Assembly (NCBI GenBank): GCA_044892505.1
Contig: CM097883.1
Coordinates: forward strand, 81,592,001 to 81,656,000
DNA from: Schmidtea nova
Lineage: Eukaryota
Direction: 5' to 3'
Length of the DNA stretch: 64,000 bases
Positions 1 to 63,139 of the stretch are shown in pieces. Made by a program: the position numbers and the translations under genes. The notes under the pieces were generated by a model. The model searched no databases, had not been told where the DNA came from, and saw only the letters and a list, made by a program, of their open reading frames with translations. Each line of letters starts with the position of its first letter. The first letter of the stretch is position 1.

Positions 1-524
1 AAACTTAAATAAAAAACTATAAAAATAGTAAAAATAGTAAAAAAATTGAAATTTTTCTAAATATAGTCCGTCGTAGATATTATGAAATAGTTAAATTTAG
101 CTCTAGTGAAATTCCATCCTACAATTTGGTAAATCAAATTTTTAATAATTTCATCAGTGAAACACTTTCAATGAATATTAATTATAATCCACGCTCCCTC
201 TAAAGTAGGCAAGCATGCGATTGAGCCGGGAAATTTTATGAATTTTAAACTATAAAAATTTTGAACTTCGTGTTATTTTGCTTATTAAGCGAAATATTTA
301 ATTTAATTTTAAAAAATTTAAATCACATTTTGTCATTAATTTTGGAATTATTTATTATTAAAATTGTCAATAATATCTACAAAAATTCAACATATGCAAC
401 ACCCTTATTTTAAAAAAAAAGTAAAATTAAACCAAATAATTACTTGGTAGGTTTACAGAGATTTAAACATAAAAATCAATTTGTTTTACTTTTTCTAAAG
501 CTCTTGCAATTTCATTTATAATTT

Positions 525-50895: not shown

Positions 50896-51203
50896 TATTC
50901 AATAAATAATCTAACAATCTTATCGGCAATTCAAAATAAATATTTACATCAATTTATTATTATTAAATCAATCATCATAAACATCCAAATTAGAACATCA
51001 ATCCAGAATTATATCTAAGTACACACATATTTGGAAAATGTTAAGATTTTGAAGAGTCCTAGCAAGAATTTTCTGCATTCGGTGTTGTTCGTCTCAAAAT
51101 CAAGTTAGATGTCAAGTAAAACGCTCTGTAATGTCTAGAAATTAAATATTTCACTCAATATTTTTACCTTCGAATTCCTTTCATCAATGACCAAATAAAT
51201 TTT

Positions 51204-51656
51204 ATGATCATCAAAGAACTTAATCTTACTGGTCTTCCGATTCGTTTGGCACATAGATCTAAGACATTAAGGCAAACCCTGTCTAACAACAAGAGAAAAG
51301 AAAATACATGTAAAATGGGAAATTGCCAAACACCGAAGAAAATATGCTTTCGCAAGAACATTGTCTATAGCATCATGTGTAATAAATGCGAAAAAATTTA
51401 CATCAGAAGCACCCTTGGGACTTTGCATCAGAGAATTAAAGAACATCTTGATCCCGGTGGAAAGTCATCTGTATATAGACATCTTCAACAATGTCAGACA
51501 GAAAATGAGGAACAATTAATATCAGTGAGAATATTGACAAGCGAAAATGACAAAAAAAATCTCAGACTTAAAGAAGCAATTCTCATTAGAAACAAACACC
51601 CAAAAATTAACTCTAAAGAGGAAATTAGCGAAATCACCCACTTACTATCTTGTTAA
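51204..51656 (+). mobile_element. 5'-truncated Penelope-like element: GIY-YIG endonuclease tail (element extends to ~52100)
   Basis: C..C...ICFRKNIVYSIMCNKCEKIYIRST...LHQRIKEH...LKEAILIR..P.IN is the PLE GIY-YIG pattern; the RT domain is missing. Confidence 0.88.
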
Positions 51657-55000: not shown

Positions 55001-56978
55001 TTTTAATAGATTTAATAGTACATATTTTAGAGTATTAGCTCTCTGTAAGTGATGTTGTTGAGTGAAAAATTTCTTTTCTCTAACTGGTGTGATTGAAAGG
55101 TAAAATTTTTTAAGTGATGGGCTTGGCCGATGGATGTTTGCGAAAGAATGAAATCGTTTTGGATATATGGAGTGTTATTGTATGAAACGATGATTCTCTT
55201 TGCTGCAAGAAGGGTGTAAAATTTTACTTTTATGATTAGTGAATTAGATATTATGGGCGTTGAGGAATGGATTTTTGTACAGATTCTCTGGATGCAGCAT
55301 GCTGTGTATGCGATGTAATGAGTGAAACGATATAATTAAAGTGCATTTATAGATGAAAGAATTTTTATGCGAGGTATTAGGTGTAGATCAGTGATTCCCA
55401 AACTTATTTGACCTACCGCCCCCTTTCCAGAAAAATTATTACCCAGCGCCCCCTGGATTTTTTTTATTTTAATAGCAATTAATAAGGGATATAAATATTA
55501 TTGTATTGGTGATAAGAGGAATTAACAAGTAAGAAACCAATTTTTTCCCCGAAACGTTTGATGATTTATTTATTAAAATAATGATCATTATCAAAATTAG
55601 TCTTTTACTCGTTAATTTCTTCAGTCTTCACATTCTATGCAAGACTGTTAAATTATTTTACATCATTTTTGTATGTACGTTTTTCGTAAAATATAGTAAA
55701 GAAAGTTGTAAATTAAGAACATTGAAGTTTGAAATTATGAAACTGTTTATTAAATTCAGAATAAAGACGATACAAAAAAGTATCTTAATTTTAATGTGAA
55801 GGATAAACCTGGTGTGCTGCTACCAATTTAGCAATTTTCGGTTCTATCTTCGTCAGCAGTAATCTTAAATCACCGCGATCGACTATTTGCAATCGGTTTC
55901 TTTTTTTTGTTAATAAATTGGTTACAGCACTGAATCCACGTTCCACTAAGTATGATGACGGAAATGCAATCAACAATTTTTGAATGACAGCCCAAATTTG
56001 TGGATAAGCCGTATGATCTCTTTTTGCAGCCAGAATTGTTGGTAGCCACTTTTGAATTTAAATTTCAATTCATCATTTGTAGCTACTTCCATCAATTCTT
56101 CTTGTAACTGTGGAGAATCTTCTGTATTTGCACTTAAAAAAGGATCAAAAATCCAATCAGGTATATTCATTTTTAATATATCATCAAATTGTTTATTAAA
56201 ATCTGAATGGAGTGCATCCAAGTGCTCACAATAAGAAAGTATGTCGCCATCTTTTTTTCTGTTCCTGATAAATTTGGAAACTGGCTGAATTCCCCTCGTC
56301 CGAAATTTCGCTTGTACACAAGAAGTTTTGTCATAAATGCAGAAAGAACAGATTTTGTTTTTATTAAATTCAATTCATCACCTTGAAGTTGAAGATTGCT
56401 TTCATTAAATTTTTGAAACAAATCGGACAAGTAAGCGATGTCATTTTTGGATTGAATTAGTTTGGATCGCAAATCCTCATTTATATCTTTCAAGAACTAC
56501 AGCACCGAGTTAAATAGCTTGTAAAACCTATCTAAACAGGCACCCTTTGACAACCATCGAATTTCTGTATGAAGAAGCAAACGATTAAATTCTTCATCGT
56601 TTTCAATACAAAGCTGCCTAAATAATCTATCATTCAATGATCTGCTTTTGATTGTGTTGATAGCTTTAAATACATATTGTAATGAATTATGTAGGCGTGC
56701 ACTTAAATTTTGGGCAACAAGATGTTGGCGATGAATGACACTATGTACTGTGAATGCATTCGGTACCTCGTTTTTTAATTATGCAAGAAAACCCTTGTAG
56801 TGCCCTACCATCGCCGGAGCACCATCTGTGGCTATTGATAAAATATTACTCAGAGGTATTCCTTTTTCTTTAAAAAACTCATCTAATGCAAGAAATATCG
56901 ATTCTCCCTTCGTGTCAGTTGCAAATATTTAGCAAATAATAATTCTTGGCAAATTTCTTCTTCCTTTATGAACCGCAC

Positions 56979-57766
56979 TGTGGTGATATAATTAATATGT
57001 AAATAAATATTACATTTATAATATTCATAAAATTTATAATATTTATATTTATATTAAATATATATTTTATTATTAAAAAAGAGAAAAACTTTTGTTTGTA
57101 TTATGTAAATATTTGAAAAATAAACGACATCTTAATTTTGTTAATTTAGTTAATTTGTTAATGTATCTAATCATCTTTTATGTTTTCCCTAAATGATTAT
57201 AAAGTATTTTGTGAAGATAACAACCTTAACAATAAAGTGGAAAAATGCAATGATAATCATGAATTAAATCTCGACAATATTAATAGAGACATAAAATACG
57301 GCATTTTGCCAAGTCTTCTTCTAAATTTCGAATTTCATACTGCAATGCGAGTTAAAGTTGCGAGCTTTGATAAATTTGAACCAATAACTGAAGATATCCT
57401 TCCAAGGGAAACTTGCTCAAAAATTACTGATTTGGAATTCATTTGCAAAGATTCCTTATTTAAAGCATTAATTCATGCAAATGTTACAATGGCTGAAATG
57501 GATCTAATGAATGATGGACAGACCGATATGTTGAGCAGCCATGCAGAGTTTATCAGCAATTTAACGAGAGGTGCGATAATTATAACAACAGCAGTAGTTC
57601 ATGCCTAAGCACAGATACCTTACTCAATGAGATCACACAAAGGGTACTTAGAAAAACTCAATGTCCAACTGTTGGGCAAATAATATACTCCCTAGCGATA
57701 CATGGTCGGACTAACGAGGGAAGAATCGAGGCAAACAATATAATGATGGTAAAAGTCAATACCACA
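56979..57766. mobile_element. Solo-LTR-like insertion (788 bp, 5-bp TSD) carrying an unknown ORF
   Basis: TGTGGT...ACCACA termini; exact TSD CGCAC (56974-56978, 57767-57771); splits the transposase at AYVR|F. Confidence 0.85.
57180..57608 (+). CDS. Hypothetical protein (142 aa) inside the solo-LTR-like insertion
   Basis: Open frame in AT-rich DNA; an overlapping second frame stays open from ~57513 to the element end. No recognised family. Confidence 0.4.
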   Translation: MFSLNDYKVFCEDNNLNNKVEKCNDNHELNLDNINRDIKYGILPSLLLNFEFHTAMRVKVASFDKFEPITEDILPRETCSKITDLEFICKDSLFKALIHANVTMAEMDLMNDGQTDMLSSHAEFISNLTRGAIIITTAVVHA

Positions 57767-58791
57767 CGCACGTATGCTAAAAGCAAAGCTTCGTCTCCTG
57801 GCAAAGTTGATTCGTCAAGCTGAATAGAAAACCGAGATGTTTTTAAATAGCCACACAATGAATCTTCAACATCTTGTGCCATTTCATCAATTCTTCTTTG
57901 CACTGTATTATTGCTCAAAGAAATTTTCTTGATAATATCAAATGCTGGCTTGTGTAACACAGTACGCATTACTTCACTTATAGCCGGTATTATTAGTTCT
58001 TTACCAATAGTATGAGGTTTTCCCGATTTGGCAATCATTAGTGAAATATTATAAGAAGCAAGCAAGCCATCGCCATCTTGTGAGGTTGCGGTTGAAAAGA
58101 GTTTTGCCACTGTCGGTTGTTGGCTAAATCTTTCTTTTAGTCTACAAAAATAACTTAAATCCTTATCTTTTTTATCACCATGAATTTCAGTCAAATGTAG
58201 TCTAGAAGGCTTCATAGCTTCGTTTGATAATATTTTCTGGCAAATCAGACACATTGGCAATGTAATATTTACAGGCGACTCAATAAAGCCATATTTCAAA
58301 TATTCGATATAATATTGTCTACTTTTTTTCTTTCGTTCAGCCATTATTATCTGTAAAAACAATAAAACTTTTATGCAGGTATTTAATGAAATATTAATAA
58401 ACATGATATCATTAATTGTGAAGCACATATAATTTTAACAAAGAAATAATATTACTCACCAATTATAGTCGCACTATTTATTACTTATTTTTAACACATA
58501 TCAATCACACTGACTTACGTGACAGCAACAGTAAGAATTTGAGGTTATGTTGCATTCTTCTTCTTCTTCCAATTTATTGGAATTGGGTGGTAAGGTTATG
58601 TTTCATGTTGATATATTTTAAACTACTTCTTCTTGTTTCAAAGTTGCGATATCTTCTTTCATATATAAATTTATGAAAATAATATTTACTTTACAATTTT
58701 ACATTTTATAATTTAGTCATCTAGTCTTCAAATGCAACAGGTATTTTTTACGTATTAAATTTTTCTGTTTTGTTTTATATTATTATTACTA

Positions 58792-58850
<59 letters not shown>

Positions 58851-58919
58851 CATAATTATCTTTTTTCACCTTTGATCTTTTTTTATTATTATTATCAATA
58901 ATTCTCATAATGACTATAG

Positions 58920-59042
58920 ATCAAATTTTTTTTATAAACAATAACACAATATTTCGGCACAGCCTTTATCAAGTGTGTAAATACACACTTGATAAAGGCT
59001 GTGCTGAAATATTGTGTTATTGTTTATAAAAAAAAATTTGAT
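58920..59042. repeat. 123-bp fold-back palindrome (~60-bp arms, 2-nt loop)
   Basis: Arms 58920-58979 and 58982-59042 are reverse complements except for one G-T mismatch and one extra A. Confidence 0.97.
58985..59017 (+). ncRNA. Penelope-type minimal hammerhead ribozyme motif (U3-A8 variant); mirror copy on the minus strand at 58944-58976
   Basis: ACAC-TTGATAA-A-GGC(TGT)GCT-GAA-ATAT-T-GTGT: stem I ACAC/GTGT, stem II, palindromic ATAT in place of stem III. The minus-strand copy has a perfect GGC/GCC stem II. Confidence 0.65.
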
Positions 59043-59054
59043 AATAATTATATA

Positions 59055-59197
59055 TGTTAAGTTTATCAAAAGAGATAGACATAATTTGAATTTTTATTTA
59101 TTACAATTATCTACTTATATAAACAAATTTTACTTGTTTATATATATTTTAAATAAGTTTGGAATTAATTAACAAAATGAGTTAATTAAATCCAACA
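59055..59197 (-). repeat. 3' LTR (143 bp); PPT GAGGGGAG at 59201-59208
   Basis: TG...CA ends; identical by eye to 62910-63052. Confidence 0.96.
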
Positions 59198-59242
59198 TAA
59201 CTCCCCTCAAAGATTGGGTTCCGGCTCTATTGTTGCTCGCAG

Positions 59243-62242
59243 TCAATCAGCAGACACGATTTTATTTTTGTCGTTTATTGATATTTTGAATGTCTTGAGG
59301 TCTGGCGATCTTTCCACTACTTTAAACGGACCATCATATGGAAGATCGAGCCCTTTGGTGATTGGCTTCTGTAACCACACCCTGGTGCATGTGGCCAGTT
59401 CTTTCTGTATGAAACTGTTTTGTTTTGAATCTATCTTCTTTTCTTTTGGTATGGGATTGTAGATGGTTGGGATATTGGATTCTTCTTCGTCAACTTCTGA
59501 TGTTATGATCGATAAATCGCCAGGTAATCTGAGTTTCGTTCCAAACACGAGTTCAGCTGGTGATGGTGAGTTATCTGAGGTGCAACAGCTGCGTAAACCT
59601 AGTAGTACTGTCGGGAGATCATGAGCCCACGTTTTATTTGCGTCTGCCGCATGAGCCTTGAGCGAGTTCTTGAGACTTCTATGCCATCTTTCTACCTTCC
59701 CATTGCATTGTGGATGGTATGCTGTGGTTCGTCTATGTTCAATGCCCATATTTCTGCAAAAATTGTTAAATAAAGTAGATTCAAATTGCAACCCTTGATC
59801 ACTGATGATAACTTCAGGTACACCGTATCTACTTATCCATTCTCTATTCAGTATTGTTACCACGTTAGAACTTGAGATTTCGTTAATTGGAATGGCTTCC
59901 CCCCACGACGTTGATCTATCAATCATTGTAAGCATGAATCTCTTATTGCTTACTGGGGGTAATGGTCCTACGAGATCAATGTGAATGGTTTTGAATCGCC
60001 CAGTTGTTGGAATATCCATGAGAGGGGTCTTAGTATGACGGCTTATCTTTGATTGTTGACATTTCTGACACTGACGATTCCAAGTTCTAATATCAGATCG
60101 CATTTTTGGCCAAACATATCTTGATGCTAATAATCGCATCATTGGTTTGTAACCAGGATGTGAGATGTTGTGTAGCCTTTGAAATTCCTGGAATCTGAGT
60201 GATGTAGGAAGGATGATTCTCGGCTTCCCCAGACTGATATCTACAAGGATACCATCTTTAGATTCACATAGATCCAGTGAAGTCATCTTTAGGTTTGCTA
60301 ATAACTTGTCGGACTTTTGTTCTGTTAGGAGCTTTGCATTATCAAAGGTATTGATTGCTTCAATCTGGATCATGTCTATCTCCATAGAATGTTGTCTTGA
60401 TAGAAGGTCAGCAGTTGCATTCTCTTTACCTTTAATATATTCGATCTTGAAGGTAAACTGAGAGAGATGTTCAATGATTCTCCATTGTCTTGTAGATGGC
60501 TCTTTCATCGACATTATGTGAATGAGTGGCTTGTGGTCAGTATTTATTGTGAATGAAGAGGCTAGGAGATAGTGTTTGAAGTGTTTCGTTGCAAGTTGTA
60601 TTGCCAGAAGTTCCCTGTCAAATGTCGAATATTTTATTTCGGATTTGGATAGCTTCTGAGAATAAAATGCGATTGGTATTAAACGATTTTCTGTATCTGT
60701 TTGATTTAGGCTTGCTCCAACGGCTACTGATGATGCATCCGTGCATAGTGTGAATGGCCTGGATGGGTCTGGATATCCAGTAGGCACTGCTCTGCATAGG
60801 GCTGCTTTAGCTTGTTCAAATGCTCTATCATGGATTTCGTTCCAAATGAACTTTTTCTTGTTTCCTGAAGCTATTGTTATTAAATCATGCAATGGAGCCA
60901 AAATATCAGATAAATGTGGAGTCAACCAGTGGTAATATCCGATGGCGCCAATGAAGCTTCTTAGCATACGTACACATTTTGGTTTTTCTATTTTAAGAAT
61001 GTTTGAAGTCTTTTCTTGAAATGCTCTTACTCCATTTTTGTCCAATTCGAATCCTAGAAATTGGATCCTTTCTTTACTGAATTCGCATTTGCTAATGTTG
61101 ACTTTGAGACCGGCTGCATAAAGGTTTTTCAGAACTGTTCTGACGTGAGATTTATGGTTCTCCAGGCTGTCTGAAAATATTAGAACATCATCTACATAAG
61201 CGACACAGAATGATTGCAAGTCTCTGAGAATGTTATCTATGTATCGTTGGAATGTCTGAGATGCATTCCTTAAGCCAAATGGCATCGTATTATATTGGAA
61301 TAATCCAAATGGGGTTATCACTGCAGTTTTGTCTCTGTCTTCTTCCGCAATCGGTATCTGGTGATAGGCTTTGATCATGTCTAATTTGGTGAAGTATTTG
61401 CTCCCAATCAGGCCATCAAGAATATCCTGGATTCTGGGAAGAGGATATTTATCTGGAATTGTGAGATTGTTGAGGAGTCTGTAGTCACCACAGGGTCTCC
61501 ACGTTCCATCATGTTTTTTTACGACAACTAAAGGTGAGGCCCAACTACTTTTGCTTACTTGAATGACATTTTCTTTTAGTAATCGATCAAATTCAGCTTT
61601 GGTTGCTCTTAGTCGTTCTCCAAAAAGCTTACGAGACTTTTGAGATATTGCTTCTCCTTTTGTTATTATTTGCAATTGAACATCTGGTTTGGTGCTGATT
61701 ATTGGCTTTTTTGGGTCAAAGATAATGTCATCATATTCACAAAATATACTATTCATCTTTGATACTTTTTGATAGCCTTTTGCGTATTCTGAAGTATTGA
61801 TGTTGGAAATTTGCCTGTTCTTGCAACTGACATTCAGATCAAAGTGCGCCAAAAAGTCTGCTCCTATTATTGGTCTGCTGAGATTTGCTACGGCAAATAT
61901 CCATTTGAATGGTTTTTGAAAGCCTTCAAATTTTAGCGATATTTCTCTGTCACCATAATACTCGATGATGGAGTTGTTGGCGCTGATTAATGTTCGCTTT
62001 CTGTCAAGTGATAGATTCGGTTCAAACAGTTTTGATGGCAATACGCTGGCATCGGCACCCGAATCTATGAGAAAGTCAACGCTGTGGTTGTTGGAGACAA
62101 TTGCCGGTACGGTGAAAGTTTGATTTTGCTTCGGATTGTAGGCTGATGTGATCTCAAAGGTTCCAGGTACCGAATTTACTGGAACCTTCTCTCGTTTCCC
62201 TGCTTCTGATTCTTTTGTTCCCATGAGCAGGGGGGTTGACAT
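59243..62242 (-). CDS. Gypsy Pol (protease, RT, RNase H, integrase), probably expressed by -1 frameshift from gag
   Basis: FLIDSGAD; WRPCGDYRLLN; YVDDVLI; LCTDASS; H..SHPG...C..C; DLVGP, SDQG, KVERWH; GPF motif. Confidence 0.96.
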   Translation of the reverse strand: MSTPLLMGTKESEAGKREKVPVNSVPGTFEITSAYNPKQNQTFTVPAIVSNNHSVDFLIDSGADASVLPSKLFEPNLSLDRKRTLISANNSIIEYYGDREISLKFEGFQKPFKWIFAVANLSRPIIGADFLAHFDLNVSCKNRQISNINTSEYAKGYQKVSKMNSIFCEYDDIIFDPKKPIISTKPDVQLQIITKGEAISQKSRKLFGERLRATKAEFDRLLKENVIQVSKSSWASPLVVVKKHDGTWRPCGDYRLLNNLTIPDKYPLPRIQDILDGLIGSKYFTKLDMIKAYHQIPIAEEDRDKTAVITPFGLFQYNTMPFGLRNASQTFQRYIDNILRDLQSFCVAYVDDVLIFSDSLENHKSHVRTVLKNLYAAGLKVNISKCEFSKERIQFLGFELDKNGVRAFQEKTSNILKIEKPKCVRMLRSFIGAIGYYHWLTPHLSDILAPLHDLITIASGNKKKFIWNEIHDRAFEQAKAALCRAVPTGYPDPSRPFTLCTDASSVAVGASLNQTDTENRLIPIAFYSQKLSKSEIKYSTFDRELLAIQLATKHFKHYLLASSFTINTDHKPLIHIMSMKEPSTRQWRIIEHLSQFTFKIEYIKGKENATADLLSRQHSMEIDMIQIEAINTFDNAKLLTEQKSDKLLANLKMTSLDLCESKDGILVDISLGKPRIILPTSLRFQEFQRLHNISHPGYKPMMRLLASRYVWPKMRSDIRTWNRQCQKCQQSKISRHTKTPLMDIPTTGRFKTIHIDLVGPLPPVSNKRFMLTMIDRSTSWGEAIPINEISSSNVVTILNREWISRYGVPEVIISDQGLQFESTLFNNFCRNMGIEHRRTTAYHPQCNGKVERWHRSLKNSLKAHAADANKTWAHDLPTVLLGLRSCCTSDNSPSPAELVFGTKLRLPGDLSIITSEVDEEESNIPTIYNPIPKEKKIDSKQNSFIQKELATCTRVWLQKPITKGLDLPYDGPFKVVERSPDLKTFKISINDKNKIVSAD

Positions 62243-62937
62243 TTCCGGGCTTTTTCTCCAAACGTTCTATGATAATAACATAGAGTATCCAGTGATTGTG
62301 AAGGTGATTTGAGTGTCTGGCTGTACTTCAGTGCTGCTATTTGGTCTTCAACATTGTTTATTTTCATTAGATTATGCATAGCTTTCTTTTGATCCATTAT
62401 GTTGTCCGCCATTTTTGCTATCTTCCAGATGTCTTCTTCGGACTGAAGGATCAGTGTATTTTGAATGTTTTCTGGTAACATTCTGAGGAATAGGTCCTTT
62501 AGCAGAACTAGAGATACAGTTCCATTACCGTATTTAAATAGATTAGAATGAATGTCCTGGAGTGCTTCTGAGGGAGTACGATCTCCTAAATAACGATCGT
62601 TTAGGAGACTTTGAAGTGATACGGGATTGTTTCTGTTGTAATCTTTCAGCATTGCTTCTTTTAGATCTGTATAGGGCAATTTGCTTTCTGTTTCAAGCAA
62701 GTGAAAGAATTTTCTTGCGATTGCTGTTGGGATTGCCATTACTAAGTGCTGAAATTGGCTTCTTTCTGACTTGATTTTAGAGAATGCAAAGGCAATTTCC
62801 AGCTGTTTGATCCATGTGGGAAAATCACTGTTGTATATCGGTAATTTGATTGAGTTGGCTTGAATTTCTAGATCTTCTACTGAAGATTCTGAGGCATTTC
62901 TGACACCATTGTTAAGTTTATCAAAAGAGATAGACAT
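62176..62937 (-). CDS. Gypsy Gag (253 aa)
   Basis: KLPIY...PTWIKQLEIAF N-terminus, LGDRTPS, C-terminal CYYHRTFGEKARKCQPPC Cys/His motif. Confidence 0.93.
   Translation of the reverse strand: MSISFDKLNNGVRNASESSVEDLEIQANSIKLPIYNSDFPTWIKQLEIAFAFSKIKSERSQFQHLVMAIPTAIARKFFHLLETESKLPYTDLKEAMLKDYNRNNPVSLQSLLNDRYLGDRTPSEALQDIHSNLFKYGNGTVSLVLLKDLFLRMLPENIQNTLILQSEEDIWKIAKMADNIMDQKKAMHNLMKINNVEDQIAALKYSQTLKSPSQSLDTLCYYHRTFGEKARKCQPPCSWEQKNQKQGNERRFQ
62194..62200 (-). promoter_or_regulatory. -1 ribosomal frameshift slippery site GGGAAAC
   Basis: G-GGA-AAC in the gag frame; a -1 shift gives GGG-AAA-C in the pol frame (AGKREK). Confidence 0.8.
62896..62908 (-). promoter_or_regulatory. Primer-binding site complementary to the tRNA-Leu 3' end
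   Basis: TGGTGTCAGAAAT, 1 nt from the 5' LTR; 12/13 match to the reverse complement of ACTTCTGACA-CCA. Confidence 0.88.
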
Positions 62938-63047
62938 AATTTGAATTTTTATTTATTACAATTATCTACTTATATAAACAAATTTTACTTGTTTATATAT
63001 ATTTTAAATAAGTTTGGAATTAATTAACAAAATGAGTTAATTAAATC

Positions 63048-63052
<5 letters not shown>
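62910..63052 (-). repeat. 5' LTR (143 bp)
   Basis: Identical by eye to 59055-59197. Confidence 0.96.

Positions 63053-63139
<87 letters not shown>
63053..63139. repeat. (TA)n microsatellite (others at 58794-58846 and 63492-63518)
   Basis: About 43 perfect TA units abutting the LTR. Confidence 0.98.

Follow-up and report, generated by a model that had tools for sequence, protein, structure and literature searches.

How does a near-perfect hairpin carrying a minimal hammerhead ribozyme motif on each arm come to lie in a simple (TA)n microsatellite? Such a hairpin is found in the window, as we call the whole stretch of 64,000 nucleotides of Schmidtea nova DNA analysed here. Each arm corresponds to the end of a Penelope-like element (PLE) that is young and very abundant and encodes a reverse transcriptase (RT) with a C-terminal GIY-YIG domain, and the object in the window is an ordinary by-product of this known class of retroelements. 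The architecture of such stubs and the U3-A8 variant of the hammerhead are already published (PMC3846280 and PMC4209133), and the supplements of earlier work may hold similar mini-elements. The interest of the locus lies in two questions, namely how the inverted insertions of PLEs form and whether their minimal hammerheads cleave in vivo. For the inverted insertions self-priming has been proposed (PMC3846280), and PMC11167929 describes the later steps of insertion as unvalidated. Tens of thousands of near-identical copies make both questions countable from DNA, with exact predictions of RNA ends.

The hairpin and its surroundings

The inverted repeat arms (58923-58979 and 58982-59038) are 57 nt long, 96% complementary and separated by a spacer of 2 nt. 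The predicted fold of the hairpin RNA has an energy of -87.2 kcal/mol (z -19), equalled by none of 200 shuffled sequences, so that the near-perfect hairpin reported in the first-pass annotation stands, and the arm sequence spelled out there is present in both arms. The 28-nt motif occurs at just two sites in the window, one per strand, whereas none is expected from 100 shuffles. The hairpin is the centre of a larger insertion of 202 nt (Table 1). Element positions are counted from U3 of the hammerhead core as 0, which places the predicted cut between +24 and +25. The long arm aligns with a tandem genomic copy of the PLE (L095) over 134 columns, the sole gap being a 2-nt homopolymer, and the short arm ends near 59049.

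Table 1. Coordinates of the insertion, its parts and its flanks in the window
Feature	Position	Strand	Basis
(TA)n target, left part	58794..58847	.	sequence
Whole insertion: head-to-head PLE stub (tailed long arm and short arm) in (TA)n microsatellite	58848..59049	.	layout as in 53/54 pairs
Long arm: PLE pLTR end, -7 to +126	58848..58979	-	alignment to tandem genomic copy L095
35-nt tail between two inferred RT start sites; ORF sequence	58848..58882	-	runs into ORF at tandem junctions
First 20 codons of PLE ORF, ATG 58908-58906	58849..58908	-	matches N-terminus of L097 865-aa frame
Minimal hammerhead motif with U3-A8 core, identical to family sequence; predicted cut between 58948 and 58947	58944..58976	-	descriptor from PMC4209133
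Head-to-head junction: arms at -7 and -10, overlap 1 nt	58979..58981	.	junction found at 267 places
Short tail-less arm from -10, lacking 26 nt between two TTGAT repeats	58979..59049	+	alignment; compare L002-L030
Second minimal hammerhead motif, C>T at 59005 (G10.1.U11.1); predicted cut between 59013 and 59014	58985..59017	+	sequence
Unrelated neighbour: 5-nt ATATA and Ty3/gypsy-type LTR element (59055-63052), splitting (TA)n target	59050..63052	-	LTRs, Pfam

In the right arm (+) the motif consists of stem I (58985-58988), core (58989-58995), an extra A (58996), stem II (58997-59005), GAA (59006-59008), AUAU (59009-59012), U17 (59013) and the second strand of stem I (59014-59017). The last base of stem II (59005) is T, and the G10.1-C11.1 pair has therefore become G.U. 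The left arm (-, 58976-58944) carries the exact motif of the family. The short A-tail previously noted after each motif is not a tail: the run of 8-9 A is internal, and a poly(A) tail was rejected since PLE sequence continues for about 75 nt past it.

On its right side the insertion borders a compact Ty3/gypsy-type element of 4.0 kb (-), which lies in the same (TA)n tract, has ATATA on both sides, and beyond which the (TA)n target resumes at 63053. Its LTRs (59055-59197 and 62910-63052) are identical and 143 nt each, and Pfam gives RT, RNase H and integrase matches. Its gag-like frame of 258 aa and pol frame of 1,007 aa lie in different reading frames, and it holds no other long frame. The positions of the LTRs led us to reject the hairpin as a part of this element. 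On the left side, broken frames at 55791-58434 (-) resemble by eye what we take to be a decayed transposase of hAT/Charlie type; two pieces of them searched against Pfam gave no match. Another PLE endonuclease region is represented at about 51165-51497 (+) by a divergent fragment that shares 30% identity with the parent protein of the stub; no hammerhead layout was seen downstream of it.

The parent Penelope-like element

Where genomic arms are longer, they continue into a reading frame that encodes an RT and, C-terminally, a GIY-YIG domain. Pieces of one such locus (L020) match RVT_1 (E 2.6e-08) and GIY-YIG (E 9.6e-06) in Pfam, consistent with a single RT plus GIY-YIG ORF, while for the 865-aa open frame of L097, which differs in the second motif, Pfam gives RT only. 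The hammerhead motif is present at all 20 loci fetched around RT matches, mostly 99 nt after the stop codon, which provides the linkage to a PLE RT that the first-pass annotation had put forward as a check. In the element the motif lies in the pLTR on the sense strand, 66 nt before the ATG and 99 nt after the stop. Full units in tandem are about 2,763 nt long, the motif recurring at 2,762-2,765 nt in L095 and L100 as expected of a pLTR. At tandem junctions the 35-nt tail continues into the next ORF, of whose first 20 residues it encodes a part. The stub is thus the extremely truncated Penelope insertion suggested earlier, its arms being the pLTR and ORF start of an RT/GIY-YIG element.

The protein has DKT, a CxCX5C linker, a CxxC in the GIY-YIG core and downstream His residues; motif inspection gave no RWK, and the motifs are a mix of Hydra-like and canonical ones. 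Likened by motifs alone, the element shares with the Hydra clade of C-terminal EN+ PLEs, as described in PMC8557442, a unit below 3 kb, DKT, the CxCX5C linker, (TA)n targets and a hammerhead. The CxxC in the core and the downstream His, in contrast, are absent in the Hydra clade as that source presents it. Among the 120 homologues listed in a protein search nearly all were unnamed, and no clade name was obtained for the element.

In the genome of 1.25 Gb the core 28-mer has 40,396 exact matches, in line with the multi-copy motif predicted at first, and a downstream 26-mer has 41,010. A 28-mer reaching -23 is found 11,230 times and one from the RT 4,252 times, reversed-sequence controls giving 0. 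The much lower count at -23, which is partly due to sequence variation, indicates that most copies end within about 20 nt of the core on its 5' side. A search of the genome with the hairpin itself returned 1,083 candidates, 40 of which were scored and all of which were 95-100% identical. As to their arrangement, stubs pile up in the same microsatellite tracts at three loci (L004, L032 and L020; up to 10 motifs per 3 kb), in direct and inverted order and with fresh (AAT)n flanks for each insertion. Closely spaced runs of PLE matches at 9.06-9.09 and 17.16-17.19 Mb of contig C1 suggest local tandem amplification.

A MITE (named in the first-pass annotation as fatal to its own reading) or a foldback DNA transposon, either one with a chance likeness to a hammerhead in its inverted repeats, would account for the near-perfect inverted repeat, the TA-rich targets and the high copy number. 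Such a transposon would not account for arms that are the pLTR and ORF start of an RT/GIY-YIG element and that differ in length, ranging by degrees from 50 nt to 5 kb, nor for related PLE families carrying the same motif layout at the same place. With such a parent and such arms its probability is negligible.

One tail and one template per pair

The anatomy of the copies was studied in the first-listed matches on contig C1 (1-3.05 Mb; 281,935 bases), with the arms aligned to L095; this sample keeps a few local duplicates, drops internal tandem junctions and misses some partners by the anchor used. The 142 terminal arms comprise 34 single ones and 108 that make up 54 head-to-head pairs. Among the listed flanks of the copies scored in the hairpin search, the arms of a copy are unequal, one reaching +126 and the other stopping near +85..92, with (AAT)n or (TA)n next to each; in the C1 sample the 3' ends of the arms fall at about +85..92 or +127. 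Exactly one tail is present in 53 of the 54 pairs, the inverted copy with a one-sided tail being typical of PLE insertions. The flanks are (AAT)n on both sides in 29 pairs, (TA)n on both sides in nine, mixed in nine and other in seven, and target duplications of 12-13 bp occur in four of the seven less repetitive sites. Short pairs hold 94 of the 142 arms and are the commonest form; scaling this share from the one region to 41,000 arms, the genome is estimated to contain roughly 13,000 short hairpins. A putative consequence is that thousands of perfect hairpins of 60-100 bp could feed small-RNA silencing of the PLE.

According to PMC3846280 (Pen2a_Av) and PMC8557442 (scheme), insertions of EN+ PLEs share with those described here the head-to-head inverted 5'-truncated copy, the one-sided tail of 30-40 nt, the pLTR with the ORF start, a short target duplication and microsatellite targets. 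Unlike Pen2a_Av as reported there, the commonest form here is a stub of two 100-140-nt arms with no ORF body, and the exact motif is present in about 40,000 copies.

The two arms of a pair derive from one template. Within 47 short pairs they share 20 substitutions against 1.3 in 2,000 shuffles (maximum 10), and a 3-nt subfamily insertion is in both arms six times and never in one arm (10.4 expected). These shared variants led us to reject two independent RNA templates paired via the hammerhead palindrome; fold-back, or conversion of one arm by the other at a later time, would also explain them. The junctions, in turn, vary from pair to pair, with 38 types in the 47 short pairs. The junction of the window is found at 267 genomic places, and among 30 of these loci 11 carry the tail on one arm, 18 carry it on the opposite arm and one has none.

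The variety of junctions bears on whether the hairpin is a non-autonomous SINE- or retrozyme-like element that is transcribed whole and then copied by the PLE protein. The one junction at 267 places, the identity of 95-100% and the prevalence of short pairs (94/142 arms) would suit such copying; the 38 junction types would not, and copying would not flip the tail from one arm to the other (11 vs 18 loci). There is also no tandem monomer unit as in retrozymes, and the stubs end at the RT start site, lacking the downstream RNA that the Anolis PLE protein requires (PMC11167929). Instead of a fixed inherited structure, both junction and tail side vary, and we find copying as a unit scarcely credible. 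The tiny self-propagating family imagined in the first-pass annotation is not supported by these counts, and its retrozyme reading is not supported either. Non-LTR retrozymes, as PMC7229834 describes them, do share the small size, the non-coding nature, the hammerhead and the abundance; they are, however, head-to-tail tandems with canonical type I hammerheads, whereas here we find inverted arms of PLE sequence with a minimal motif, and where stubs are repeated in the same direction, microsatellite lies between them (L004). Retrozymes were rejected on this comparison and on that with bioRxiv 10.64898/2026.07.22.740005. Elsewhere, L126 (-) holds a repeat unit of 382 nt with a canonical-core hammerhead at about 530-600 and 912-981 (Rfam HH9, E 0.007 and 0.011, below the gathering score). 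The start of this repeat presumably resembles the 5' end of U1 snRNA, although L126 gave no U1 match against Rfam.

Joined together, the one-tail rule, the shared variants of the arms, the varied junctions and the tail-less arms that are the longer ones make it likely that the hairpins are built anew at each site. The stub was probably made by priming both target strands on a single PLE RNA in one insertion event. The PLE protein would cut both strands of an AT-rich target and let each cut end prime reverse transcription of a single shared RNA. One cDNA would start at the outer internal site (+127) and so acquire the tail; the start of its counterpart would lie about 35 nt upstream of that site (+85..92). 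Both cDNAs would begin at the start sites close to the transcript 5' end and run off that end after 100-140 nt, 10-13 nt before the hammerhead core (-13..-10). The two cDNA ends would then be trimmed and joined head-to-head by short microhomology, fill-in completing the hairpin, and a duplication of 12-13 bp would result where the target is not a simple repeat. The stub itself is probably a dead end, rebuilt at each site and not copied.

This scheme has a counterpart in another PLE, Poseidon of Anolis. According to PMC11167929 its protein, a predicted dimer with a preference for ATT, cleaves both strands of the target and extends each of them, and two internal RT start sites bound the tail. 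Poseidon thus shares with the present element the two start sites within the ORF start, the ATT-rich targets and the use of both strands; its ORF, however, starts within the hammerhead, against 66 nt after U3 here. The main text of PMC11167929 does not link two-strand priming to inverted insertions. A literature search over titles and the starts of abstracts, which took in neither subscription papers nor supplements, gave no two-strand-priming account of PLE inversions and no description of this PLE family; this does not prove that they are unpublished.

Fold-back during reverse transcription, the origin favoured in the first-pass annotation, would have a tail-primed cDNA reach the RNA 5' end, fold and copy itself back until it ends at an AAT-like stretch annealing to the target. 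It predicts arms that share variants, and the short arm does end in target-like GATAATAAT. It also predicts that the tail arm is equal or longer, as is the case in 41 of 53 pairs (further in 30, equal in 11), a count that speaks against two-strand priming. In three pairs both arms break off at an identical unusual position (-22, -76 and +44). What fold-back cannot yield is a tail-less arm longer than the tail arm, found in the other 12 of 53 pairs, six of them by more than 5 nt and two by 1,622 and 1,862 nt, as well as at L020. For the window junction the longer arm is without a tail in 18 of 29 loci including the window, which two untemplated A could mimic. The earlier claim is thereby weakened and we consider it unlikely as the general route, though fold-back may act in some pairs.

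Self-priming on an antisense PLE transcript would likewise produce a head-to-head palindrome (proposed in PMC3846280). One template and palindromic junctions would follow, and some long arms are indeed joined to short ones through the complementarity of stem I (L260-L274). The one-tail rule (53/54), on the other hand, is not predicted, nor are pairs in which both arms start at the sense-strand cut site (16/30 at +25 and 12/23 at +26), and the template of another PLE in vitro is sense RNA (PMC11167929). We regard the antisense route as very improbable, and return to priming of both strands on one sense RNA.

That reading makes the 5' ends of the arms informative. They are clustered: the furthest 5' point of 88 insertions is at -14..-3 in 53, at -22 or beyond in 19, at +1..+22 in five, at +26..+28 in six and at +37..+44 in five, three end points at +41 being likely alignment stops at subfamily indels. 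The cluster 3-14 nt before the core is likely the start of the RNA, a position read from DNA ends alone. The -10 end coincides with a predicted distal extension of stem I, and a stop caused by structure is therefore possible.

The minimal hammerhead and its predicted cut site

The motif fits the published descriptor of a minimal type I hammerhead with a U3-A8 core (PMC4209133). The descriptor consists of the core boxes with the 3-8 pair, an extra base after A9, G10.1-C11.1, a palindromic 15.1-16.1, H17 and a helix I of 4-5 bp; the left arm matches exactly and the right arm has G.U at 10.1-11.1. The U3-A8 core, bulged extra A and palindromic tetramer first read from the letters are hence confirmed by the scan, and in PMC4209133 all three, and pairs of motifs on opposite strands, were reported before. 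The minimal hammerheads of metazoan PLEs, among them the U3-A8 variant of Schistosoma Cercyon elements, share with the present motif the lack of helix III, the palindromic 15.1-16.1 tetramer, the extra base after A9, G10.1-C11.1, a 4-bp helix I and the U3-A8 core. In contrast to that account, helix II has here only 3 bp with a 3-nt loop (7-8 bp in Schistosoma), sequence variation is very low, and the opposite-strand motifs are 16 nt apart instead of about 100-700 bp.

The best fold of the 51-nt monomer contains stems I and II. The active dimer reaches -7.6 to -9.6 kcal/mol, 11-13 kcal/mol above the best co-fold (-20.9 kcal/mol). Rfam gave no hammerhead at E up to 10 in window positions 57000-61000 or in one unpaired pLTR, and for the hairpin only generic miRNA-hairpin matches below the gathering score. 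Within the PLE family no compensatory changes were seen. In 29 arms of an older subfamily, many of whose loci were picked by the core pattern, fixed differences number 0/33 at -4..+28 and 10/98 at +29..+127. In the stub the two motifs are on opposite strands, so that one transcript cannot hold a hammerhead dimer, and for a transcript reading through the window hairpin the pair probability of the ribozyme stems is 0; folding thus predicts hammerheads locked shut within the hairpin. The hammerhead would be a passenger of the parent pLTR; a small fraction of the parent RNA molecules is probably cleaved by it, and these would leave a minor class of still shorter stubs.

Such a class can be looked for at the predicted cut. 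Patterns demanding a mismatch just before +21, +24, +25 and +26 gave 242, 219, 424 and 901 matches, and truncated arms with no partner reaching the 5' side of the core made up 8/30, 15/30, 23/30 and 14/23 of the inspected loci, respectively. The genome-wide numbers of arms starting at these positions are accordingly estimated at about 65, 110, 325 and 548, from 23-30 loci per position with local duplicates kept and slightly different pattern lengths. The count covers these four positions. A step of about 5-8-fold at the predicted cut hints at cleavage of a few percent of the templates; its maximum falls at +26, a base later than the +25 predicted. Most of the listed arms that begin at +25 have an A in front of them, perhaps an untemplated addition at the end of the cleaved RNA. 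This minor class hints at hammerhead cleavage in vivo. For the Anolis PLE PMC11167929 reports no reads ending at the cut site and normal insertion of ribozyme mutants.

Tentatively, and with somewhat more doubt than conviction, the hairpins may be viewed as a fossil record of one RNP acting on two strands with a single RNA and two fixed sites, in which most stubs would place the start of the transcript to a few bases and a class of 2-3% would record cleavage in vivo by a U3-A8 hammerhead whose helix II has just 3 bp. If true, the formation of PLE inverted repeats would be answered and cutting by a minimal hammerhead in vivo shown.

The same layout, read by eye, occurs with C3-G8 and other stems in three more hammerhead families: L069 and L124, PLE families at 35-42% protein identity in which it follows a divergent GIY-YIG, and the unlinked L114. 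These families have a helix II of 6 bp and palindromes of 6 nt.
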